Source of the DNA: an uncultured Azospirillaceae bacterium
Lineage (GTDB): Bacteria; Pseudomonadota; Alphaproteobacteria; Rickettsiales; UBA3002
DNA: 64,000 nt
Assembly: GCA_964352815.1 (NCBI GenBank)
Contig: CAYGTO010000003.1
Location: forward strand, 133,015 to 197,014
Reading direction: 5' to 3'
Shown: positions 13,665 through 64,000 of the stretch, piece after piece
Position numbering within the stretch: position 1 is the first letter of the stretch
Layout: each line of letters begins with the position of its first letter
Position numbers and translations under genes: made by a program
Notes under the pieces: model-generated
What the model was told of the DNA's origin: nothing
What the model saw: only the letters and a program-made list of their open reading frames with translations
The model's database searches: none

Positions 13665-14687
13665 TTATGAGCTATCTGGCTTACCGATGCGCTGAATCTC
13701 CCATTGGAGCTCCACCCCGAAGTGATCCTTGACCCGGCGGCGCATCTCTTCCCCAAGCGCTTCCAGGTCGCGTGCTGTCGCTGTGCCGGTGTTAATCATG
13801 AAGTTGCAATGCTTCTCCGACATCTGCGCACCTTCTAATTCTAAACCTCGGCCGCCCACCGCGTCAATCATTTGCCACGCTTTGTGCCCCTCGGGATTCT
13901 TAAAGGTGCTGCCCCCCGTCCGCTCGCGCACTGGCTGGGTCGCCTCGCGCGCCTGTTTTATCTCACGAATTCGCTGATGTATCTCTTCTGGCTCACCTTT
14001 CTCAACGCGGAAAATGGCCTTAGTAAACACCCAATCGTTCGGCGCGGTCGAATGGCGGTAGCTATAGCCCAGCTCATCGACGCTGACCCGTTTAGTCTCT
14101 CCCTCGCCGGTGACCAGTTCAGCCGCAATCAGCACATCACTCATCTCCGTGCCATACGCACCCGCATTCATCCGAAGCGCGCCGCCAATCGTGCCCGGAA
14201 TGCCGCTCAAAAATTCGAGGCCAGCAATGCCATGATCGGCGGCGTAGAGGGCGACATTGGCATCCAGGCAACCCGCGCCAACAAACAAAGACTCGTCACT
14301 CTGCGAGGAGGCGCCAGCCTCCGCGGCAGTCCATTCTCGCATCACATCGCTAGAATGGATCGCGTCGCTTCGCTCGCGAAATGCTTCACTCTGAAACCTG
14401 AACCCCGAATCCTGAACCCTGAGCTCCGTAAACCCCCGCCCGAGCTTGATGACCACCCCGTCGATCCCACCATCGCGCACGATCACGTTCGAGCCCACGC
14501 CCAGCACCGTCACCGGCAGGTCTGCGGGCTTCTGCCTCATAAAGTAAGCAAGGTCTTCCGCATTTTCCGGTTTAAAGAGCAACTCCGCTGGGCCACCCAC
14601 CCGAAACCAGTTGGTCTTCGCCAGGTCAGCGTTCTCGCGCAGCTTGCCACGGAGATCAGGCATTATGCTTGTTAGTTCATATTTCAT
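13665..14687 (-). CDS. murB: UDP-N-acetylenolpyruvoylglucosamine reductase, carrying a repeat-derived in-frame insertion
   Basis: GVGSN, GIPGTIGGALRMNAGAYG and GSTFKNP motifs. About 45 extra residues (RVQDSGFRFQSEAFRERSDAIHSSDVMREWTAAEAGASSQSDE) lie between GRGFTEL and LFVGAG. Confidence 0.9.
   Translation of the reverse strand: MKYELTSIMPDLRGKLRENADLAKTNWFRVGGPAELLFKPENAEDLAYFMRQKPADLPVTVLGVGSNVIVRDGGIDGVVIKLGRGFTELRVQDSGFRFQSEAFRERSDAIHSSDVMREWTAAEAGASSQSDESLFVGAGCLDANVALYAADHGIAGLEFLSGIPGTIGGALRMNAGAYGTEMSDVLIAAELVTGEGETKRVSVDELGYSYRHSTAPNDWVFTKAIFRVEKGEPEEIHQRIREIKQAREATQPVRERTGGSTFKNPEGHKAWQMIDAVGGRGLELEGAQMSEKHCNFMINTGTATARDLEALGEEMRRRVKDHFGVELQWEIQRIGKPDSS
14300..14384. repeat. nested-palindrome element, TTCGCGAG subfamily, inside murB
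   Basis: The minus-strand reading gcatTTCGCGAGcgaagcgacGCGATCCATTC...GAATGGactgccgcg...cgcctcCTCGCAGA is colinear with the glyS copy at 63442-63570. Confidence 0.7.
14389..14436. repeat. tandem heptamer array (TGAAACC family) inside murB
   Basis: tctgaaa cctgaac cccgaat cctgaac cctgagc tccgtaa. It encodes the QDSGFRFQS stretch on the minus strand. Confidence 0.7.
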
Positions 14688-28092: not shown

Positions 28093-28140
28093 ATCCCGCC
28101 TTTCATTTGCTTCGAGCGCCAGAATGTTCGCGTTATTCTC

Positions 28141-28223
28141 GTCATCTCGAACACTGCAAGCTTTGGCGAAGCAGTGGAGAGATCTTAGATTTCTCGTCGC
28201 GCTCCGCGCTCACTCGAAATGAC
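28141..28223. repeat. nested-palindrome element (GTCAT...ATGAC family), intergenic upstream of mraZ
   Basis: GTCATCTCGAA...GAGAGATCTtagATTTCTC...CTCGAAATGAC. It has the same architecture as the copies at 41308 and 54193. Confidence 0.8.
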
Positions 28224-28315
28224 GATCTATGTTTCGTGAGATTCTGCTTTGCGCGGCACCCCGCCATTTCCTTCAAAGCCATCCTCTTCTATCCGCGACA
28301 CCATTCTGGTCGTTA

Positions 28316-28469: not shown

Positions 28470-28540
28470 GGTTTTAGTTTTCAGGTTGTAGGTTACAGCA
28501 TGGCTATTTCTGAAACCTGCAACCTAACACCTACAACCTA
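28470..28540. repeat. inverted heptamer arrays (GGTTTCA/TGAAACC family) forming a hairpin at the rnpB 3' end
   Basis: The left arm is ggtttta gttttca ggttgta ggttaca. A 13-nt loop follows. The right arm is tgaaacc tgcaacc taacacc tacaacc. On the minus strand the hairpin is followed by TTTAT. Confidence 0.75.
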
Positions 28541-28544
28541 TCCA

Positions 28545-29042
28545 ACGAAGAGGGCCGATAAGCCGGGTTCTGTCACTGGCATTGCCAGGGATGGCCATTC
28601 ATCTAGGCCGCTTGTTGCCAAACGGCTCATGCACCCTACCCGAGATGCTGGTGCGAAACTCACTTGCGGCGATTACCTTTGCACTACCAAAAGCGTTCGG
28701 ACACGGCCGCGCGCATCTCCTATTTGGGCTTGCTCCAGACAAGGTTTACCATGCCGCCTGTGTTACCAAAGGCGCGGTGGGCTCTTACCCCACCCTTTCA
28801 CCGTTGCTTTGCATATGCTCCCCGCTTCGGTCGTCTGACCTACGCGATGGAGCGCCGCTCAGGGCTGGCCTTGCTGCTGCAAGGAATATTGCCCCGAAAC
28901 TACATACAAAGCAGTCTACTTTCTGTGGCACTGTCTCTCGGATCACTCCGGGCGGGGGTTACCCGCTGCCTTGTTTCGTGGAGCCCGGACTTTCCTCCCC
29001 CTATCGCGAGCGATAGAGAGCGACCATCTGGCCCTCTTCGGA
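28545..29042 (-). ncRNA. rnpB: RNase P RNA (bacterial type A)
   Basis: The reverse complement contains GGAGGAAAGTCCGGGCTCCA, GGTGAAAGGGTGGGGTAAGAGCCCACCGC, GGTAAAC, GAGCAAGCCCAAATAGG, CCTAGATGAATGG and ACAGAACCCGGCTTATCGGCC. The P1 helix is formed by GAAGAGGGCC/GGCCCTCTTC at the two ends. Confidence 0.93.
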
Positions 29043-31939: not shown

Positions 31940-32149
31940 CTGTATTGCTTAAATGATGCATCGAACCAATGTCTTACCCCTTACGGAACCTTTTTTCCTG
32001 AGCGCACCCAGAAGGCAGTGAGCGATCTTTTTTTAATATGTGGCGAAAATTGTGTTATTCGAGAACCGCAGCGCAGTCTACTTTCGGGTACATGAGCAGC
32101 GGAAGTAGAGAATAAAGCAATTTGCAGCCCATAATAAAAAGATCGAGGC

Positions 32150-32180
32150 AAAAAAAAGGGCACATCTCAATGATGCGCCC
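32150..32180 (-). terminator. rho-independent terminator candidate downstream of the DjlA-like gene
   Basis: The minus strand reads GGGCGCA-tcattgaga-TGTGCCC followed by TTTTTTTT. Confidence 0.6.
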
Positions 32181-32300
32181 CAAGTCGCTCGGCAAGCAAC
32201 AGTTGATCGGCGCGCTCACAGCAGCGCCGAGATATCTCTCTCATGGAATGATGTGGCGATCCGCCAATTCACTCCTCCCACTCTTCCGCGTGATGATGGC

Positions 32301-35061: not shown

Positions 35062-35077
35062 TGCATTATTTCACTAT

Positions 35078-35233
35078 GTCATCTTCGGGGCTTTTGTCAG
35101 TAAGACAAAAGAGCCCGGGGATCCAGGATAAACATGTCAGAAGACATGTTTATTTCCATGAATGTCTTCTGACATTCATGGAATGGATTGCCTGCGACTC
35201 GTGGTATACTGACCACTCGCGCGTGGCAATGAC
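35078..35233. repeat. long (156 bp) four-hairpin variant of the GTCAT...ATGAC element, purS-purQ spacer
   Basis: GTCATCTTCGGGG...GTGGCAATGAC, with perfect internal hairpins ataaacatgtc-agaa-gacatgtttat and ttccatgaatgtc-ttct-gacattcatggaa. Confidence 0.85.
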
Positions 35234-38907: not shown

Positions 38908-38917
38908 TATTTTTATT

Positions 38918-39074
38918 GTCATCCTCGGGGCTTTTGTCAGCAAGACAAAAGAACCCGGGGATCCAGAATCTAAAAGGTCAGAAGACCTTTTAGATTTCTC
39001 ATGAAGTCTACTGACTTCATGAGAATGGATTGCCTGGATGCGTTCGCTTACTGCTCACTTACCGTGGCAATGAC
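38918..39074. repeat. long (157 bp) four-hairpin variant of the GTCAT...ATGAC element, purL-bolA spacer
   Basis: The ends are near-identical to 35078-35233. The internal hairpins are aatctaaaaggtc-agaa-gaccttttagatt and tctcatgaagtc-tact-gacttcatgaga. Confidence 0.85.
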
Positions 39075-43153: not shown

Positions 43154-43984
43154 CTACCTAAACTCAAACAGCGCTCGGAAAATCCCATGCCAGGTGTTTA
43201 CTTCCTGCGTGCTAAGGTCCGCTCTCAATAAAGAAGTGCGGATATTGCGCCACATGGCAGACTTTTTCTCGGGCACGCTCCAGAAATTCGCCTGATCAAG
43301 CATGGGTTCAAGCTGGTCAAACAGCGCCTGTAGCTCACCGTGGGTTGCATTTACACCGTCATCCTGAGAGAGCGCAGCGACCGAAGGATCTTCTATCCTG
43401 TGGCGCGATAGATCCTTCGCCGGCGGCTCAGGATGACGAAGATTAGCCTCCCGAATCCCGAATTCTTGCCTAAACCACTCATAACACACAATATTAACTG
43501 CTTGACCAAGATTCAGGGACGGATAGTCCGGATTCGCCGGAATCGGCAGAATCGCCTGCGCCAGCGTGACATGTTCATTGGTCAGGCCCGTGCGTTCTGG
43601 GCCGAAAAGAATGGCTACACTGTCATCCCGCGATTTAATCGCGGGATCTCTACTTGCATCCAGAGATCCCCTGGTCAAGCCACGGGATGACAACATTTCA
43701 CTAATATCCGCCTCCGGCTTATGCATCTCTCGGTCGCGCGCCGTGGTGGCCAGTACATAGTCACAGTCCGCTATGGCCGCTTCTAACGTGTCATAGAGCT
43801 GCGCCGCCTCAATCAGGTGCTTTGCCCCCGCCGACAGGCTCAGCGCCCGCTCATTGGGCCAGCCATCGCGCGGATTGACAATTCTAAGCTCCGACACGGC
43901 GAAATTATGCATTGCCCGCGCCGCCGCACCAATATTCTCGCCCATTTGCGGCTCAACGAGGATGATTTTCGGAGATTGTTGCAT
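43154..43984 (-). CDS. SpoU/TrmH-family RNA 2'-O-methyltransferase (TrmJ/LasT-like) with two repeat-derived insertions
   Basis: ILVEPQMGENIGAAARAM, ILFGPERTGL and SLNLGQAV motifs. The extra segments LSSRGLTRGSLDASRDPAIKSRDDS and HPEPPAKDLSRHRIEDPSVAALSQDDG coincide with the two repeat copies. Confidence 0.85.
   Translation of the reverse strand: MQQSPKIILVEPQMGENIGAAARAMHNFAVSELRIVNPRDGWPNERALSLSAGAKHLIEAAQLYDTLEAAIADCDYVLATTARDREMHKPEADISEMLSSRGLTRGSLDASRDPAIKSRDDSVAILFGPERTGLTNEHVTLAQAILPIPANPDYPSLNLGQAVNIVCYEWFRQEFGIREANLRHPEPPAKDLSRHRIEDPSVAALSQDDGVNATHGELQALFDQLEPMLDQANFWSVPEKKSAMWRNIRTSLLRADLSTQEVNTWHGIFRALFEFR
43358..43437. repeat. nested-palindrome element (GTCATCCTGAG subfamily) inside the methyltransferase CDS
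   Basis: 80 bp, identical at 75 of 80 positions to 45121-45200, in the same orientation. Confidence 0.9.
43622..43691. repeat. nested-palindrome element (GTCATCCCGCG variant) inside the methyltransferase CDS
   Basis: GTCATCCCGCG-atttaat-CGCGGGATCTCT-acttgcatcc-AGAGATCCC-ctggtcaagcca-CGGGATGAC. Confidence 0.85.
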
Positions 43985-44053
43985 TGCACCACTACAGTTC
44001 ATTGTTTTTTAATGATTTTTCATTATTGTTATATGGTCTAAAAGGAAAATGCA

Positions 44054-44836
44054 ATGCCACGTAGAAAGAACACTGTAAACGTCAAAATACTCGCTTTGGT
44101 CGACACGCTGGATTTACTGCTATCATTAAAAGAAGCAGATCTGCCTGAGGGTGAAACTGATTTATTCCCTGGTCTTGTAGGCCTTCCTGTCTACAAATCC
44201 GCTGATTATCAGTCACAAATCAAACAGTTAAATCTTGCTATGAAATCACTTGCTGACACAATGGGTAAACAACCAATATCTTTTGGCAAATCGGAACGTG
44301 ATCATGATAGGGAAGCTGGCGGCCTGTATGTACTTCATGTTTCTATTCCCGAACCACCTCATGAATATTTAGATATATTACGTACATTTCTAGAAACTCA
44401 TAAAACTAAGCATGGCATTCCAGAAGGCTTCATCGATTACCGCCATACCCCCCAGATGCCTGTGGATTTGTTGATTGCGTGTTTAGCTGAAGTTAGAGAA
44501 AACTCGGCCCCTGAAGATACATCTGCAACATTAGAAACACCAATAAACAACGGGTTACATGCCGCTGCGCTTTCTAAACTCCTCAACGCAGCCAAAGCCA
44601 GCGCTTACGGCGATACGCATGAAATACTATTTAAACCTGCATATACAGGAGTCGAAGTAACCTCATCAGGCATAGGACTGCACGAAGCGATTGATAAGCT
44701 GACATCAAACTTAAAACAGCCAGAGAGAAAGAAGGCGTTTGCTAATCACATCCAACAACCCGATTTCGCGCGGGCAGCTCAAAGCGTTTACGCTGCTTAC
44801 GTAGCGCCAATTGCGCGTTCACATGGGTATGTTTAG
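44054..44836 (+). CDS. hypothetical protein (orphan)
   Basis: 260-aa ORF, AT-richer than neighbours by eye; no motif recognised. Confidence 0.5.
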   Translation: MPRRKNTVNVKILALVDTLDLLLSLKEADLPEGETDLFPGLVGLPVYKSADYQSQIKQLNLAMKSLADTMGKQPISFGKSERDHDREAGGLYVLHVSIPEPPHEYLDILRTFLETHKTKHGIPEGFIDYRHTPQMPVDLLIACLAEVRENSAPEDTSATLETPINNGLHAAALSKLLNAAKASAYGDTHEILFKPAYTGVEVTSSGIGLHEAIDKLTSNLKQPERKKAFANHIQQPDFARAAQSVYAAYVAPIARSHGYV

Positions 44837-46512
44837 CCAAGCAACCCGTAGGTAAGCGCGTCTTTGAGCGCCTCATAGGACGCATCGATAATGTTGTGCG
44901 ACACACCGATCGTGGTCCAGCTTTGACCCTTCTCATTCGTGCTTTCGATCATCACACGGGTCAGCGCGGCCGTTGCATCTTTCGGCGTTAGAATTCGCAC
45001 TTTGTAGTCACTCAGATGCATTTTCTTGAGCTTTGGATAGGTCGGCATTAGCGCGGCACGCAGCGCGGCATCGAGTGCATTGACCGGGCCATTACCCTCG
45101 CCTGCTGTCAGGCAGGTACCGTCATCCTGAGAGAGCGCAGCGAGCGAAGGATCTTCCATCCTGTGACACGATAGATCCTTCGCCTGCGGCTCAGGATGAC
45201 GGTTTGTTTTTTTGGATTTTGTAGCAACCGTCAGCTTCACCGTCGCCTCCGACACCGTCACCTTTCTGCCCTTCGCATTAAATCGCCGCTCATCAGTAAC
45301 ACGGAAATGCTCCAGCTCAAAAAATTCGGGCACCAGCCCCAGCTTCCGGCGCACGAGCAGCTCAAAACTCGCATCGGCATCTTCATAGGCATAGCCAAGT
45401 TTCTCGCGCTCCTTGATCAGCTTGACCAAATCATCCAGCTTCGGGTTCTCTTTCTCTTTGCCAAGCCCCATCGCTTCGAGGCGGGTGATGATGTTTGACT
45501 TACCCGCCTTATCGGACACCAGAATCTGGCGCTGATTGCCGACTTGCGCCGGATCAATATGCTCATAGCTCTTCGTGCTTTTCGCCATCGCCGAGACATG
45601 CAAGCCGCCCTTATGCGCAAAGGCCGCGCTACCAACATAGGGCAAATGGCTATTCGGAATCCGGTTCAGCCGCTCATCGACCAGGCGCGACAACTTTACC
45701 AGCTGCTGAAGTTTTTTCTCAGACGCGCCGGTTTTATAGCCCAGCTTCAGCATCAGATTTGGAATGATCGAAATCAAATTCGCATTGCCGCAGCGCTCGC
45801 CAATCCCGTTGATCGTGCCTTGCACCTGGCGCACGCCCGCTTCCACCGCCGCGATTGAATTCGCCACGGCCTGTTCGGTGTCGTTATGGCAATGAATGCC
45901 CAAATGATCGCCCGGAATATGCTGCGTAATTTGCGTTACAATCTCGCTGATCTCATGCGGCAGCGTGCCGCCATTCGTATCACACAGCACCACCCAGCGC
46001 GCGCCGGCCTCATACGCGGCTTTCAGGCAATCAAGCGTGTAGTCTGAGTTCGCCTTGAACCCGTCGAAACAGTGTTCCGCATCAAACAAAACTTCGCGCT
46101 TTTTCGACACCGCATGGGCGATACTGTCGGAAATCATTTTCACATTCTCTTTTTGTGAGACGCCCAATGCGTTCTCGACCTGCCAATCCCAGCTTTTGCC
46201 GACGATGCATAACGCGCCCGGATGCGCATCGAGCAGCGCGTTCAGCCCCGGATCATTCGCCGCGCTACGGCCATTGCGCCGCGTCATGCCAAAGGCAGTG
46301 ACCTTCGCTTTTTTAAGCTTCGGCTGTTCCGCAAAAAATTGATCATCTGTCGGGTTCGCGCCCGGCCATCCGCCTTCAATATAATCAATGCCGAACTCAT
46401 CGAGCGCCTTCGCAATCGCGATTTTATCAGACACGGTGAAATCAACCCCACGCGCCTGCGCGCCATCGCGCAGGGTGGAATCATAGAGAGTAATGCGGTC
46501 TTGTTTAGTCAT
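44833..46512 (-). CDS. cimA: citramalate synthase-type LeuA-family enzyme with a repeat-derived insertion
   Basis: LYDSTLRDGAQ entry, HCHND metal motif and a C-terminal LeuA-dimer domain. Start placed at MTKQDR (46512). The extra segment RHPEPQAKDLSCHRMEDPSLAALSQDDG coincides with the repeat. Confidence 0.8.
   Translation of the reverse strand: MTKQDRITLYDSTLRDGAQARGVDFTVSDKIAIAKALDEFGIDYIEGGWPGANPTDDQFFAEQPKLKKAKVTAFGMTRRNGRSAANDPGLNALLDAHPGALCIVGKSWDWQVENALGVSQKENVKMISDSIAHAVSKKREVLFDAEHCFDGFKANSDYTLDCLKAAYEAGARWVVLCDTNGGTLPHEISEIVTQITQHIPGDHLGIHCHNDTEQAVANSIAAVEAGVRQVQGTINGIGERCGNANLISIIPNLMLKLGYKTGASEKKLQQLVKLSRLVDERLNRIPNSHLPYVGSAAFAHKGGLHVSAMAKSTKSYEHIDPAQVGNQRQILVSDKAGKSNIITRLEAMGLGKEKENPKLDDLVKLIKEREKLGYAYEDADASFELLVRRKLGLVPEFFELEHFRVTDERRFNAKGRKVTVSEATVKLTVATKSKKTNRHPEPQAKDLSCHRMEDPSLAALSQDDGTCLTAGEGNGPVNALDAALRAALMPTYPKLKKMHLSDYKVRILTPKDATAALTRVMIESTNEKGQSWTTIGVSHNIIDASYEALKDALTYGLLG
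45121..45200. repeat. nested-palindrome element (GTCATCCTGAG subfamily) inside cimA
   Basis: 80 bp, identical at 75 of 80 positions to 43358-43437. Confidence 0.9.
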
Positions 46513-46621
46513 GACGAGCATTAGGCGAGATTTTTGCAAAAAAATCAAGAATCGTCACAATTCTGAAACAATCCTATGTTATTAAGCCCAAATATTAAGA
46601 ATATAAGGAAGGACAAATAAG

Positions 46622-48495: not shown

Positions 48496-48581
48496 GTCAT
48501 TGCGAGGAGCGATAGCGACGAAGCAATCTTTTGAAAGTGACTACTGAGATTGCCGCGCTCACTTCGTTCGCTCGCAATGAC
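48496..48581. repeat. nested-palindrome element (GTCATTGCGAG variant), gltX-nadE spacer
   Basis: GTCATTGCGAG...GAAGCAATCT-tttgaaagtgactact-GAGATTGC...CTCGCAATGAC. Confidence 0.85.
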
Positions 48582-48587
48582 GTGATA

Positions 48588-52392: not shown

Positions 52393-53325
52393 CTAAAGCT
52401 TTTCCATCAATTCCGGAACGATGTCGAACAGATCGCCCACCAGCCCATAATCGGCGATTTCGAAGATAGGCGCATTTTCGTCTTTATTGATTGCAACGAT
52501 CACTTTGGATTCCTTCATCCCCGCCAAATGCTGAATCGCGCCAGAAATACCAATCGCGATGTACAGCTCAGGCGCCACGATTTTTCCTGTCTGGCCGACC
52601 TGGTAATCGTTAGGCACATAGCCCGCATCGACGGCCGCGCGTGACGCACCAATCGCTGCGCCCAGCTTATCGGCCAGCGGCTCGAGTAGCCCATTAAATT
52701 TCTCGCCATCGCCAAAGCCGCGCCCACCAGAAATGACGATATTCGCAGCGGCAAGATCGGGGCGATCGCCCTCAGATTCGCTATGCGAGACATAGGTGGA
52801 AAGCCCTGAACTGGACGGGCATTCAATCACTTCAGCGCTCGCCGAACCGCTTTCACCTGCTTTATCAAAGCTTGAAGGTCGCACCGTAACCACCTTAATT
52901 TCGTCAGAACTTTGCACCGTTTCGATCGCATTACCCGCATAGATCGGGCGACGGAACGTGTCAGCCGATTCGACCGCAATAATGTCTGATATTTGCTGAA
53001 CGTTCAATTTCGCTGCGATGCGCGGCATGATATCTTTGCCAGTCGTCGTTGCTGGTGCAAGGATATGCGAATAGCTGCTTGCAAGCGGCGCCACCAGCGC
53101 TTCCATATTCTCCGCAAGCGGCCAGCTGTAATGCCCGGCATCGGCATGGAGCACCTTCGCCACCCCGTCAATTTTTGTCGCCTGCGCGGCGGCATCGCCT
53201 GCATTATGGCCTGCTACAAGCAGATGAATGTCACCTGCACTCATTGCCTGCGCCGCGGCGACCGTCGCATGCGTCGCCGGATTCACGGTTTTGTGATCAT
53301 GTTCTGCAATGATTAATACTGCCAT
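52393..53325 (-). CDS. etfA: electron transfer flavoprotein subunit alpha
   Basis: 310 aa with the C-terminal FAD-binding motif [19 protein letters not shown]. Confidence 0.93.
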
Positions 53326-53336
53326 ATTCTACTCCT

Positions 53337-53412
53337 ACGTTTCGCGAAGGAGCGAAGCGACTGACGCGATCCAGGGCGTGACTCTGGATTGCTTCGCTAC
53401 GCTCGCAAAGCG
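53337..53412. repeat. nested-palindrome element, degenerate TTCGCGA subfamily, etfB-etfA spacer
   Basis: acgTTTCGCGAAG-gagcgaagcgactgac-GCGATCCAG-ggcgtgact-CTGGATTGC-ttcgctacg-CTCGCAAAGCGt. Confidence 0.65.
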
Positions 53413-54168
53413 TTACAACACCTTTGCTTCGTTCTTCAACTTATCGACCAGCTCATCAACATCTGCCACCTTCACCCCGCCGCTTCGTTTCGGCGGCTCG
53501 GTCACTTTGAGCACACTCACGCGCGGCGCAAGATCAATGCCGAGCGACGATGCTTCAACCGTCTCCATCGGCTTGCTGCGCGCTTTCATAATATCGGGCA
53601 GTTTCGCATAGCGCGGCTCATTCAGTCGCAAATCCGTCGTCACCACGCATGGTAGATTGAGGCCTACTGTCATTAAGCCGCCATCGACTTCGCGGGTCAC
53701 TTCGATGGCTTGACCATCGATCTTCAACTCCGAGGCGAAGGTTCCTTGGCCCCAGCCTAGCATGGCCGCGAGCATTTGGCCGGTTTGGTTTGCATCATCA
53801 TCAATCGCCTGCTTACCCATAATGACCAGATCGGGCGATTCTTGTTTCACAATATGTTCAAGAATTTTCGATGCAGCCAGTGGCTGAATCACCTCATCTT
53901 CGCCGGTTTGAATGCGAATCGCCTTATCAACCCCGAGCGCCAGTGCGGTACGCAGCACATCTTCTACTTTCGCCGGACCAACCGACACGGCGACGACTTC
54001 GCTTGCTGCGCCCTTCTCTTTCAGGCGAATTGCTTCTTCCACCGCGATTTCATCGAACGGGTTCATCGACATTTTCACGCCGCCCAGCTCAACGCCAGTT
54101 TCATCGGATTTCACACGGATTTTGACATTGTAATCAACCACACGCTTGACGGGGACAAGGATTTTCAT
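53413..54168 (-). CDS. etfB: electron transfer flavoprotein subunit beta
   Basis: [19 protein letters not shown] entry; 251 aa. Confidence 0.93.
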
Positions 54169-60189: not shown

Positions 60190-60250
60190 TTATACCTTTG
60201 CGCGCTAATACCCATTGATTTTCCTAGGCAACCCGGTTACAACCGCGTGC

Positions 60251-61210
60251 ATGTCGAAAAGTACATCCAAAACCCCCTTCGCATTCCAGGATATCATCCT
60301 GACACTTCAGCATTTTTGGGCGGAGCAGGGGTGCGTGATTTTGCAGCCCTACGACATGGAAGTGGGCGCCGGGACGTTCCACCCCGCGACGACGCTACGC
60401 GCGCTCGGACCGGAGCATTGGAACGCGGCCTATGTTCAGCCTTGCCGCCGCCCATCCGATGGCCGTTACGGTGAAAACCCCAACCGGCTGGGCCATTATT
60501 ATCAGTTTCAGGTCATTCTGAAGCCCTCACCCGACAACATCCAGCAGCTTTATCTCGACTCGATCGCCGCGCTCGGCATCGATCCGCTCAAACATGATAT
60601 TCGTTTCGTGGAAGATGACTGGGAATCCCCTACTCTTGGCGCGTGGGGGCTGGGCTGGGAAGTCTGGTGCGACGGCATGGAAGTGACGCAATTCACCTAT
60701 TTTCAGCAAGTGGGCGGCATTGAGTGCAAGCCCGTCTCCGGCGAGCTAACCTACGGGCTGGAGCGGCTGGCGATGTATATTCAGGGCGTTGAGAATGTGT
60801 ATGACCTGGTATGGAATCAGGTGCCTGGTGCCAGGGGCCAGGGGTCAGGAAGTCATCCTGAAACCCGAAACCTGAAACCTGTAACCTATGGCGATGTGTT
60901 CCTACGCAATGAACGCGAGCAAACCGCCTATAGCCTAGAGCATGCAAACACCGACATATTGCTGCAACATTTTAAAGATGCCGAAGCCGAATGCGCGCAG
61001 CTTCTTGAAAAGAAACTTGCTTTGCCTGCCTATGATCACTGCATCAAAGCCTCGCATCTGTTCAACCTGCTCGATGCGCGTGGGGTGATTTCGGTGACCG
61101 AACGTGCGGCATATATTGGCCGCGTCCGCGCCTTAGCCAAAGGCTGCTGTGAAGAATATGTGAGGGGTCAGGTTTCAGGTTTCGGGTTTCAGGAAAAAGA
61201 GGCTTCATGA
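60251..61210 (+). CDS. glyQ: glycine--tRNA ligase alpha subunit, with an internal and a C-terminal repeat-derived segment
   Basis: [17 protein letters not shown] entry, colinear with E. coli GlyQ. The extra [22 protein letters not shown] lies before YGDVF. The C-terminus [14 protein letters not shown] is encoded by the heptamer array. Confidence 0.92.
60820..60886. repeat. inverted heptamer arrays inside glyQ
   Basis: The left arm is ggtgcct ggtgcca ggggcca ggggtca. The loop is aagtcat. The right arm is cctgaaa cccgaaa cctgaaa cctgtaa. Confidence 0.8.
61164..61193. repeat. heptamer array, left arm flanking the four-helix-bundle gene
   Basis: ggggtca ggtttca ggtttcg ggtttca gg. This is the inverted complement of 61570-61600. 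Confidence 0.8.
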
Positions 61211-61587
61211 TTCGTTCTTATCAGGATTTAGAGGTGTGGAAGAAATCCTTGAGGCTGGTTAAAGACGTGTATGGCTGCACAAGACTTTACCCAAAATCCG
61301 AACTCTATGGCCTTGTAAGCCAGACACAACGAGCCGCTGTATCGGTGCCAGCCAATATTGCTGAAGGCCGCACGCGTTATTCCAAAAAAGATTTTGTTTC
61401 TCATTTGAAGATTGCTTCTGGCTCTTTAGCCGAGCTTGAAACGCATCTTTTCATTGCCACTGAACTCGGCTATATCACGATAGAACAGCGAGACGCTTTG
61501 TTAAATACATCCGCCGAGATAGGCCGGATGCTCAATGGCCTGGTGAATTCGTTGAAAAGCGAAAAACAACTGGAACCCGAAACCTGA
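61207..61587 (+). CDS. four-helix-bundle protein (23S rRNA intervening-sequence protein / Avd-like family)
   Basis: LEVWKKS..L.....Y.....[44 protein letters not shown] matches the family signature. There is an ATGA overlap with the glyQ stop. Confidence 0.88.
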
Positions 61588-61600
61588 CACCTGAAACCTA
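61570..61600. repeat. heptamer array, right arm flanking the four-helix-bundle gene
   Basis: ctggaac ccgaaac ctgacac ctgaaac cta. It encodes the last residues (LEPET) of the four-helix-bundle ORF. Confidence 0.8.
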
Positions 61601-61602
61601 TT

Positions 61603-61957: not shown

Positions 61958-62584
61958 ATGTCAACAAGGAGAGAATATAATAGAAAAGAGCTGTTCAAGA
62001 TAGGGGAAGACGGAAAGCCCGTCCATGTAAGCGATATTTTGTCATGGCTACGCAGCGAAAAAACCACGGATAGTGATATCGCATCACTTACGCGTGGGGA
62101 AATTTCGGCTATTTTGGGAACGGAGCACATTAATGTGAATCGATATGCTGCAAAGCTGGCTGCAGAAAAAGAGTTTCAACTTTTACAAGACTGTAGAGAA
62201 GAAAGAGGAAAGACCAGAATGAAAATGATTACCACAACTGATAACGAGGGTAGGATTGTCGACGCGATGTCAGTCTTTGAATCGCTTGAAGAGGGAGACA
62301 GAGCACTTGCGCGCGAAAGCATGGCTGTTTCACATAATAAAAGATTAAGCCAAGAGCTAGACCGCTTAAAAGATGCTGGCGGTGACCTTTTTAGGCAATG
62401 TTCTGCTATCATGATAAAAGATGCTAACAAAGCCCTCAAATTAGCGCATAAGATACAAGAATTCATGCATCATGATCTTGGTATTGCGTATACTGCCGTT
62501 GATACGCTTGTGGACTCGATTCAGTCGAAAGGCCCTTTAAAAGCGCTAGACCCTAGAGAGAAACGATCACCGCGAGCCGCCTAA
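61958..62584 (+). CDS. hypothetical protein (orphan)
   Basis: GGAGGAAAGG lies upstream of ATG 61958. TAATG overlap with the glyS start. AT-richer by eye; no motif recognised. Confidence 0.5.
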   Translation: MSTRREYNRKELFKIGEDGKPVHVSDILSWLRSEKTTDSDIASLTRGEISAILGTEHINVNRYAAKLAAEKEFQLLQDCREERGKTRMKMITTTDNEGRIVDAMSVFESLEEGDRALARESMAVSHNKRLSQELDRLKDAGGDLFRQCSAIMIKDANKALKLAHKIQEFMHHDLGIAYTAVDTLVDSIQSKGPLKALDPREKRSPRAA

Positions 62585-64000
62585 TGCCCACCCTTCTATT
62601 CGAATGTTTCTCCGAAGAAATGCCCGCACGGATGCAAGCGCCGGCGGAAGCGCAGCTGCATGAGCGGTTTGAAAAAGCGCTTAAAGATTCACGGCTCGAA
62701 CATGGCACGGTGAAAACCTTTGTCAGTCCACGCCACCTTGGCATTCGCATTGAAGGCCTGCCCGCGCAGCAACCAGACATCACGATCGAGCGCAAAGGGC
62801 CCAAAGTCGGTGCGCCAGAACAGGCGATGCAGGGCTTTTTGAAATCCACGGGCCTGAGCGTGGATGAGCTTGAACAGCGCGACACAGGAAAAGGCACTTT
62901 TTATTTCGCCGTCAAAGAGGAACAAGGCAAACCGACTCGCGAGGCGCTGAAACCGATCATCGAACAGGTGATGCATGAGTTTAGCTGGCCAAAATCGATG
63001 CGCTGGGGCGCCTATGAATGTAGCTGGGTGCGCCCGCTACATCGCCTCGTTGCACTACTCGATGATCAGGTTATTCCCGCGCAATTCCACCATATCACCG
63101 CGAGCAATATCACTTTTGGTCATCGGTTTCTTGCCCCGGAAGCCATCACGCTTACCCATGCAGATGACTATGAAGCCGCCCTCGAAAAAGCCTATGTGCA
63201 GGTTGATCGCGCAACACGCCAATCGCGCATGATGGAGCAAAGTGAGGCATTGCTGTCGCAGAAAAAACTCGCACTGATAGAGGATCGTGGGCTGCTCGAT
63301 GAAGTGACCGGCCTCGTCGAATGGCCGCACCCAAAATGCGGCACGATTGACGAAACCTTCATGCGGCTGCCGAAAGAAGTGTTGGTGTCGGAAATGCGCG
63401 AGCACCAAAAATATTTTGCTACAACGGAATCAGAAAACCACACTTCGCGAGAGAGCGCAGCGACCGACGCGATCCATTCACATACGCAAGAATGGGCTGC
63501 CGCGTCTGCCTGCGCGAAGCCGGAGCTTCGCTTCGGCGAAGACAGGTCGGCTAACGCCTCCTCGCAGAACGGGATATCCCCTCACTACCTCATTATCGCT
63601 AACGTCCCCGGCGATGCAGGTGCGATTGAGCATGGGAATAACCGCGTACTACGCGCACGTCTGTCTGATGGTGCTTTCTATTGGGACAGTGACCGCGCCG
63701 TACCGCTCAGCGAATGGGCAGAAAAACTTGCATCCGTCATCTTCCATGCGAAGCTAGGTACCACTGCACAAAAGGTGCAGCGCATCCGCGATTTGTCCGG
63801 CCATCTCGCTTTGTTTGTTCCCCACGCAAATCTTGAGCATGTGGCGCGCGGAGCCGAGCTTTGCAAAGCGGATCTGGTCACCGGCATGGTCGGCGAGTTC
63901 CCCGATTTGCAGGGCATTATGGGCCAATATTACGCGCAAGAACAAAAGGAAGTCGACGAGGTCGCACGCGGCATCTATGAACATTATCTCCCGCAAGGCG
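62584..64000 (+). CDS. glyS: glycine--tRNA ligase beta subunit (3' end beyond window), with a repeat-derived insertion
   Basis: Absent from the ORF track because it has no stop in the window. Own translation of frame 1 gives MPTLLFECFSEEMPARMQ..., FVSPRHLG, REHQKYF, GNNRVLRARLSDGAFYW and HAKLGT. The frame is open to 64000. Confidence 0.9.
   Translation, partial: MPTLLFECFSEEMPARMQAPAEAQLHERFEKALKDSRLEHGTVKTFVSPRHLGIRIEGLPAQQPDITIERKGPKVGAPEQAMQGFLKSTGLSVDELEQRDTGKGTFYFAVKEEQGKPTREALKPIIEQVMHEFSWPKSMRWGAYECSWVRPLHRLVALLDDQVIPAQFHHITASNITFGHRFLAPEAITLTHADDYEAALEKAYVQVDRATRQSRMMEQSEALLSQKKLALIEDRGLLDEVTGLVEWPHPKCGTIDETFMRLPKEVLVSEMREHQKYFATTESENHTSRESAATDAIHSHTQEWAAASACAKPELRFGEDRSANASSQNGISPHYLIIANVPGDAGAIEHGNNRVLRARLSDGAFYWDSDRAVPLSEWAEKLASVIFHAKLGTTAQKVQRIRDLSGHLALFVPHANLEHVARGAELCKADLVTGMVGEFPDLQGIMGQYYAQEQKEVDEVARGIYEHYLPQG
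63442..63570. repeat. nested-palindrome element (TTCGCGAG subfamily, 129 bp) inside glyS
   Basis: acTTCGCGAGagagcgcagcgaccgacGCGATCCATTCacatacgcaaGAATGGgctgccgcg...cgcctcCTCGCAGAac. It shares 19 nt (gagagagcgcagcgaccga) with the 43358 copy and its overall layout with the murB copy. Confidence 0.75.

Follow-up and report, generated by a model that had tools for sequence, protein, structure and literature searches.

A 132-nt in-frame insert in glyS of an uncultured alphaproteobacterium, probably derived by decay from a dispersed palindromic repeat

The glyS gene and its in-frame insert

The 64,000-nt stretch of DNA analyzed here (contig CAYGTO010000003.1 of an uncultured alphaproteobacterium; the window) ends within glyS, the gene for the beta subunit of glycine--tRNA ligase (GlyRS). 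This gene carries an in-frame insert that resembles short repeats found at other places in the window (Table 1). The gene extends past the window end; the full protein has 733 amino acids and was found as an exact match in a public protein collection (P0001). Translation of the glyS frame contained no stop codon from 62584 to the end of the window. Around the insert it reads ...REHQKYFATTESENH-TSRESAATDAIHSHTQEWAAASACAKPELRFGEDRSANASSQN-GISPHYLIIANVPGD (continuously, ...EMREHQKYFATTESENHTSRESAATDAIHSHTQEWAAASACAKPELRFGEDRSANASSQNGISPHYLIIANVPGD...), in exact agreement with the translation given in an earlier note on this DNA, which had been made from the sequence without database searches. The Pfam model PF02092 matched the protein with E=1e-145 in two stretches around the insert, and matches to solved GlyRS beta structures were interrupted at the same place.

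The limits of the insert were measured against orthologues. The best 120 matches to GlyS were collected, of which 115 were scorable, and 20 orthologues were used in a multiple alignment. The closest orthologue is 64% identical, lacks the insert and has 689 amino acids versus 733 here; named relatives show about 52% identity and come from metagenome-assembled genomes (MAGs) labelled Rickettsiales or Alphaproteobacteria. In the 20-orthologue alignment the HTSRES-ASSQN stretch had no counterpart in the closest relatives. The length obtained in this way, 44 codons, shows that the 129 nt and 43 codons (63442-63570) of the earlier note were right to within one codon. The limits are ambiguous by 3 nt because AAC is present at both junctions, and 63436-63567 would be equally valid. 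The GC content of the insert is 63.6% versus 54.6% in the remaining gene, and its predicted translation includes the peptide ESAATDAIHSHTQEWAAASACAK. Residues in the columns that are invariant across the alignment are all kept in this protein, by construction, which fits a gene that may well be working.

Table 1. Position of glyS, its insert and the related elements within the window
Feature	Positions	Strand	Basis and remarks
glyS (glycine--tRNA ligase beta subunit), 5' part	62584-64000	+	PF02092, exact protein match, solved GlyRS beta structures
In-frame insert in glyS, 132 nt, 44 codons, HTSRES...ASSQN, probable degenerate palindromic repeat	63439-63570	+	orthologue alignment
19-nt box GAGAGAGCGCAGCGACCGA, between short inverted repeat TCGCG/CGCGA	63449-63467	+	identical to 43366-43384
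Central hairpin CGCGATCCATTC-(10 nt)-GAATGGGCTGCCGCG, common to murB copy	63468-63504	+	alignment, fold
Extra hairpin(s) GCGAAGC-CGGA-GCTTCGC / CTTCGC-TTCG-GCGAAG	63514-63541	+	fold, alignment
Right terminus GCCTCCTCGCAGAAC; murB counterpart GCCTCCTCGCAGA	63556-63570	+	degenerate form of canonical CTCGCAATGAC ends
In-frame homologous element in murB	14296-14393	-	alignment; gene 13665-14687, - strand
Intergenic copy, same subfamily as glyS and murB copies	53338-53414		nhmmer E=1e-18; between open reading frames 52393-53325 and 53413-54168, both -
Subfamily B copy, 84 nt, CGTCATCCTGAG...CTCAGGATGACG, in SpoU/TrmJ-like methyltransferase gene (43154-44002)	43355-43438	-	in frame
Subfamily B copy in CimA/LeuA-like gene (44833-46548), splits LeuA_dimer domain	45118-45201	-	94% identical to 43355-43438; fold z = -6.6
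Intergenic canonical copy, - strand reading CGTCATTGCGAGCGAAC...CCTCGCAATGACAG	48500-48585		profile search, alignment
Intergenic canonical copy, - strand reading CGTCATTTCGAGTGAGCG...GTTCGAGATGACG	28130-28228		profile search, alignment

According to the earlier note, GlyS proteins normally run almost directly from the HQKYF motif to the F(I/L)xxxN motif. This is true of about 87% of the orthologues, since the spacing was 11-13 residues in 100 of the 115 scored; here it is 56 residues. It does not extend to some of the others, which carry unrelated inserts in the loop, and in 15 of the 115 the loop is longer, at 16-59 residues.

An AlphaFold2 model of the full 733-residue protein, with the 20-sequence alignment as input, had a mean predicted local distance difference test (pLDDT) score of 85. 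The only segment with a score below 50 was the insert (residues 285-328), and in the model it is flanked by confident beta-strands at 278-282 and 331-339. In an alignment with 7yse, the solved structure of the beta subunit from E. coli, the site fell at approximately E. coli residues 290-296. The B3 domain of GlyRS beta comprises residues 216-340 and is an alpha-beta-alpha sandwich with an antiparallel sheet (Ju et al. 2021, PMC8464048); by E. coli numbering the position of the insert would correspond to this domain. The most economical reading is that the ribosome passes through the element and that its 44 residues bulge out, disordered, from a beta-hairpin loop, with the rest of the fold intact.

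Related elements in the window

The earlier note considered the inserted DNA to be homologous to an insertion in murB, with 19 identical nt in common with an element at 43358 and with terminal and central motifs in common with the murB copy. The 19 nt proved to be exact. Alignment of the glyS insert with the reverse complement of the murB segment 14300-14384 revealed colinear matches: 15 nt exact, 16 nt at 94% and, at the right end, 14 nt exact. The local alignment score was 49, compared with 15.1 +/- 2.4 (maximum 28) in 2000 shuffles and with at most 40 in 5472 other windows taken from the 64 kb. The insert is also 88% identical over 33 nt to the intergenic copy (53341), and nhmmer E values against the other copies ranged from 1e-18 to 1e-23, the profile having been built from the same three sequences. 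A profile search added two further intergenic copies, those ending at 48585 and 28228. Altogether seven copies of 77-132 nt were found in 64 kb, four of them intragenic and three intergenic.

One could suppose that the glyS loop was expanded locally, by slippage or duplication, and that its likeness to the other loci is merely compositional. Loop length does vary among orthologues, and the insert holds short internal GCGAAG/CTTCGC repeats. However, the colinear similarity to murB exceeds the shuffles by 14 standard deviations and is higher than in any of the other genomic windows tested, the 19-mer is exact in the subfamily B copies, and the nhmmer values given above also speak against local expansion, which we regard as very unlikely. 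The main proposal of the earlier note, that a repeat (here a dispersed palindrome) homologous to the one in murB was inserted in frame, is borne out by orthologues without the segment and by six other copies in the window, three of which are intergenic. The GlyS alignment did not reveal a conserved, lineage-wide domain devoid of similarity to intergenic repeats.

The left half is common to all seven copies and consists of (CG)TCATyxCGAG, then GAGCG(C/A)AGCGA, then xCGAxGxxATC; the right ends are its mirror image, CTC-x-x-x-ATGAC(G). Five copies were folded and all gave better values than shuffled sequences, with z from -2.5 (glyS, murB) to -6.6 (45118). The intragenic copies are GC-rich (58-64%). 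At each of the three intergenic copies, the flanking genes are transcribed in the same direction.

In murB the element itself covers 82 nt (14304-14385) between 8-nt direct repeats CAGAGTGA, with a distance of 90 nt (30 codons) from start to start. The element encodes SEAFRERSDAIHSSDVMREWTAAEAGASSQ, in a frame that reads ...FRFQSEAFRERSDAIHSSDVMREWTAAEAGASSQSDESLF..., and MurB has about 37 extra residues at this place by comparison with the solved structure 9dtk. The insert in the TrmJ-like protein encodes RHPEPPAKDLSRHRIEDPSVAALSQDDG and is located in the linker after the SPOUT domain; comparison of this protein with its solved homologue 3onp showed a second, shorter extra stretch at about residues 97-123 (ISEMLSSRGLTRGSLDASRDPAIKSRDD). 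Both subfamily B copies are read in one frame, RHPEP(P/Q)AKDLS(R/C)HR(I/M)EDPS(V/L)AALSQDDG. All four intragenic copies, in the unrelated genes glyS, murB, TrmJ-like and CimA-like, are in frame and free of stop codons. As each element has 2-3 stop-free frames out of six, a shared frame is weak evidence of anything beyond selection against stop codons. The idea that a frame shared within subfamilies is a sign of a "designed" peptide was accordingly rejected, two concordant pairs being weak evidence when so many frames are open. The left ends of the glyS and murB copies are read in different frames and give similar residues by chance.

None of the copies was matched by an Rfam family, whether the gathering threshold or the E-value threshold was applied. 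In protein searches, a peptide profile of the glyS and murB inserts yielded five word candidates and a tandem of two B peptides yielded three, none of which scored. A profile of the B peptide run against 1.84 billion representatives returned the TrmJ-like protein itself, a few translated repeat arrays and spurious matches of the leucine-rich repeat (LRR) type. A literature search on the terminal sequences of the elements returned nothing relevant.

Structure of the glyS copy

The extra internal hairpin described in the earlier note, gcgaagccggagcttcgcttcggcgaag at 63514-63541, is present in the glyS copy, where the minimum-free-energy fold shows it as an arm of its own. This copy is the longest of the seven (132 nt versus 77-99 nt in the six others). 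Its surplus over the murB copy is about 42 nt, with about 51 nt here replacing about 9 nt there, and contains the extra hairpin. Up to 63519 the glyS copy resembles a complete two-unit element made up of CTTCGCG, the box, CGCGATCCA, a spacer, TGGGCTGCCGCG and CGCGAAG. The final CGCGAAG mirrors the left end, and a further 51 nt follow, which close with GCCTCCTCGCAGAAC.

The earlier note took the extra hairpin to suggest nested growth of the element. The length of the glyS copy fits such a gain, although the extra segment occurs only once in the 64-kb window; nested growth is plausible as one possibility. The surplus may stem from internal insertion, from partial duplication or recombination of two copies, or from a deletion in the murB copy.

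The HQKYF loop in other GlyS proteins

The HQKYF loop of GlyS is a permissive hot spot, which in other alphaproteobacterial lineages contains palindromic inserts of other families. Loop-insert DNA of four orthologues (L021, L142, L143 and L144) formed strong palindromes, with fold z values of -5.2 to -9.6 versus shuffles; the same-loop DNA of the closest relative, which is free of an insert, gave z = +0.2. The elements of L021 (GCA_021730835.1) and L142 end with CTCCCCCCTTG(A/C)GGGGGAG, that of L144 with CCTCTCCCAGTGGGAGAGG, and that of L143 has the ends CGTCATCC...GGATGACG. Overall, at least four independent insertions from at least three element families were recognized at this loop. The inserts start at variable positions, 2-6 codons past YFA, which favors a permissive loop that retains arrivals over site-specific targeting. 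In one pair of orthologues the insert of P0084 is a shortened version of that of P0064, which suggests decay in place. The 11-kb contig of the closest relative (L020) contained no copy of the window elements.

The glyS gene of L021 was found to contain two in-frame copies of a cloverleaf-like palindromic element of about 150 nt (1596-1772 and 2040-2216, ends CTCCCCCCTTGAGGGGGAG / CTCCCCCTCAAGGGGGGAG). One is situated at the same loop as the insert described here and the other in the region of the B1 domain.

Expansion of the same loop in 15 of 115 orthologues could also be taken to mean that the segment is an exapted functional module, a peptide or messenger RNA (mRNA) hairpin recruited as a GlyRS interaction surface, for translational pausing or for mRNA stabilization, and kept by selection. 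The B3 domain contacts the alpha subunit (PMC8464048), and the glyS and murB peptides share DAIHS..EW.AA..ASSQ. These shared motifs, however, follow directly from the shared DNA, and the loop inserts of other lineages belong to unrelated element families and encode unrelated peptides. Furthermore, the segment is predicted to be disordered, and the same elements are found between genes and, in other genes, in the opposite orientation. Exaptation is therefore considered unlikely.

The 19-nt box outside the window

The box, in the form GAGAGAGCGCAGCGA(C/G)CGA, was found exactly in at least 120 metagenome stretches, inside palindromic elements. Many of the matches listed share the context seen in the window, namely GTCAT(T/C)xx, the box, the complement of the bases that precede the box, a loop and a mirrored right arm ...ATGAC. 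Among these listed matches, the box flanks are complementary over at least 5 bp in 21 of 82 distinct cases, where permuted pairs would lead one to expect 1.9. Stem sequences vary (ATTCT/AGAAT, ATCCT/AGGAT, ATTGC/GCAAT and GCCCT/AGGGC) yet remain complementary, so it is pairing rather than sequence that appears to be kept. In-frame box elements were also present, among the matches listed, in genes for a TatD hydrolase (L025), ThiC (L050) and a nucleotide-sugar dehydrogenase (L071) on unrelated contigs, and two of these three are read in the ..SVAALS.. frame of the B copies of the window.

A separate observation among the listed matches concerns a conserved locus, CTTCCGTGACG-box-CGGCGCGGAAG..., which is nearly unchanged in about 20 metagenome contigs (L029, L034, L035, L046, L047 and about 15 more). 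At least two contigs with this locus are labelled human gut.

The possibility had to be considered that a repeat was wrongly spliced into glyS during assembly or binning, the source being a metagenome-assembled genome of an uncultured alphaproteobacterium. Elements placed by such an error would not be in frame and free of stops in four cases out of four. In addition, both flanks of the insert are continuous with conserved glyS sequence, and the same phenomenon occurs in independent NCBI, JGI and Logan assemblies. We give very little credence to an artefact of this kind.

Origin of the insert

Taken together, the data indicate that the glyS segment is very probably a decayed small non-coding palindromic repeat, of a type like the CGTC-tagged repetitive extragenic palindromic (REP) sequences or the Rickettsia palindromic elements (RPEs) and built as a head-to-head pair of hairpins, which was inserted into loop-coding DNA. 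The proposed sequence of events is as follows. The element would have entered the DNA for a beta-hairpin loop of the GlyRS beta subunit, presumably by transposition-like mobilization. As the addition is divisible by three and the frame free of stops, the ribosome would read straight through it. The enzyme would thereby gain 44 residues that bulge from the B3 domain and leave the remaining fold intact. The insert would persist since the loop tolerates the additional length, and not through any function of the peptide, while copies inserted at other places in the essential glyS gene, or in a way that shifted its frame, would have been lost. The glyS copy is probably immobile now.

Several points weigh against this explanation. 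The glyS copy has no CGTC tag (it reads CACACTTCGCG), and its fold barely beats shuffled sequences (z -1.6 to -2.5); with a weak fold and a lost tag, its membership in the family rests on alignment to better-preserved copies. There is no clear target-site duplication: the junctions show AAC/AAC in glyS and an 8-nt repeat in murB; the B copies and the metagenome copies show none. The CAGAGTGA/CAGAGTGA pair at murB is not established as a duplication of this kind, because the conserved right end of the element likewise reads CAGA and because other copies lack a duplication. No transposase was identified, although the open reading frames of the window were not screened for transposases. A search of genome contigs with the pattern CGACGCGATCCATTCN{4,30}GAATGG gave 19 matches, all by chance, with unrelated flanks and none from the source genome. 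Finally, that the insert is translated and the enzyme still active is inferred.

A wider proposal can be made on the basis of the box, which we put forward only tentatively and consider doubtful. The box might mark a widespread, undescribed CGTC-type family, spread over many bacterial groups, whose conserved loop between covarying stems is a recognition site for a mobilizing or host protein and which is recurrently translated in housekeeping enzymes, with the HQKYF loop of GlyRS as a recurrent site of landing or retention. If this is true, the loop would be a natural test bed for selfish palindromes becoming protein sequence.

Other repeats and RNA features in the window

The glyQ gene (60215-61210, + strand) was found to contain a 13-residue in-frame insert at 60830-60890 compared with the 84%-identical orthologue on L020. 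It consists, at the DNA level, of a heptamer-like repeat, CTGAAACC..., and follows GTCATCCTGA, bases that also form the end of the subfamily B element. A short repeat designated family D1, CTGAAACC(T/C)GAAACCTG.., occurs in four copies, at 14391-14422, 28510-28541, 60858-60889 and 61570-61601. One of them adjoins the palindromic insert of murB and is translated (VQDSGFRFQS); another forms part of an inverted repeat at the 3' end of the RNase P RNA gene. A peptide similar to the translated D1 repeat, GVQDSGGKVQES, was present in the hot-spot loop of the GlyS orthologue P0043.

A class A RNase P RNA (315 bits) is encoded on the - strand at 28543-29039 and has 497 nt versus the 367 positions of the model. 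Its unaligned inserts comprise about 85 nt in the stem-loop at model positions 126-151 and about 44 nt just past position 245. Two hairpins, at 35077-35129 and 38917-38969, are 92-94% identical and read TGTCATC(T/C)TCGGGGCTTTTGTCAG.AAGACAAAAGA.CCCGGGGATCCAG, with the same TGTCATC start as the palindromic elements; they may represent another repeat family or terminators. A weak, sub-threshold match to the mmgR/suhB small RNA family was obtained at 32143-32204 on the - strand (28 bits with a gathering threshold of 41, E=0.1).

Significance

In-frame palindromes that code for protein were at first presented as peculiar to Rickettsia. The same process would here have operated at high density in an unrelated alphaproteobacterium of 52% GC, with four essential or housekeeping genes affected within 64 kb. 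Inserts of this kind matter for annotation, where they split Pfam matches and inflate protein lengths. For studies of protein evolution they would mark loops that tolerate approximately 30-60 extra residues, and for engineering they would point to permissive sites in GlyRS, MurB, TrmJ and CimA. The type of event is already known; the added interest lies in the density of in-frame copies outside Rickettsia and in the repeated use of one GlyS loop. The conservation of the 19-nt box across habitats and the recurrent insertions in the GlyS loop appear most worth following up.

Comparison with known systems

The REP elements of the GTAG type and REPINs, mobilized by REP-associated tyrosine transposases (RAYTs), differ from the elements described here in that no GTAG tag was seen at any copy end, either in the window or in the metagenome matches; a RAYT gene was not searched for. 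There is a resemblance to bacterial MITEs (transposable elements of miniature size with inverted repeats) such as Correia/NEMIS, ERIC and Nezha: the elements share with them small size, lack of coding capacity, multiple copies and inverted repeats at the ends (CGTCATCCTGAG...CTCAGGATGACG and variants), and MITEs are known to form occasional in-frame fusions with host open reading frames (PMC10969869). On the other hand, no consistent target-site duplication was seen in them, nor was any insertion sequence identified that has matching ends and could be the parent.

Palindromic repeats inside coding genes have also been reported as the Wolbachia palindromic element (WPE; Ogata et al. 2005, as cited in PMC3733652). 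The WPE is, like the present case, an alphaproteobacterial example outside Rickettsia, although from another host group, and the likeness is one of description. The RPEs of Rickettsia itself are characterized by palindromic repeats that sit in frame in housekeeping genes (Ogata 2000, 2002; summary in PMC10969869). The elements of the window, at 77-132 nt against approximately 100-150 bp, agree with RPEs in being short, multi-copy palindromes found both between genes and in frame within conserved housekeeping genes. They also agree in adding a peptide at positions compatible with the fold (the glyS loop and the inter-domain linker of the TrmJ-like protein), read in the same frame within a subfamily. 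They differ in that the host does not belong to the genus Rickettsia, the window has 52% GC (49-55%) and the elements are GC-rich; the comparison was made by description and not by consensus sequence.

Close counterparts also occur among the many short palindromes for which Di Nocera et al. (2013; PMC3733652) set up superfamilies tagged with GTAG or CGTC. The CGTC repeats are mostly alphaproteobacterial, their stems begin with AT, and they occur mostly as head-to-head dimers. The superfamily includes RPE-4 and RPE-6 of R. conorii, has no known transposase and is intragenic in several species (PMC3733652). Published families have 8-9-bp stems, 4-5-nt loops and an unpaired CGTC tag with the variants TGTC and CCTC (PMC3733652), and the supplement of that study lists a CGTC-1 dimer in glyS of E. 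litoralis, at residues 398-423.

The copies at 43355, 45118, 48585 and 28228 have the CGTC tag followed by an AT stem (CGTCATCC, CGTCATTG and CGTCATTT). The glyS, murB and 53338 copies have (CAC)ACTTCGCG or TTTCGCG in place of the tag and are read as degenerate. The canonical copies resemble head-to-head dimers of CGTC-tagged REPs: they have the form CGTC-AT-CCTGAG... / ...CTCAGG-AT-GACG, that is, two inverted units with outward CGTC...GACG ends. Units of the A type end in ..ATCCA, the host is alphaproteobacterial (its GlyS groups with alphaproteobacterial MAGs), and the intragenic in-frame copies encode RHP... peptides that resemble those in PMC3733652. Differences are also evident. The units in the window have 5-6-bp stems (ATCCT/AGGAT, TCGCG/CGCGA) around the 19-nt box, the list of intragenic REPs in PMC3733652 has none of the peptides that typify the box-bearing elements (SVAALS, RERSD, RHPE, LRMT), and the insertion described here, unlike the E. 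litoralis dimer, is in the B3 loop. On these grounds the glyS insert appears to be a new case of the known CGTC-type, RPE-like kind of element, within which it may represent a new family.

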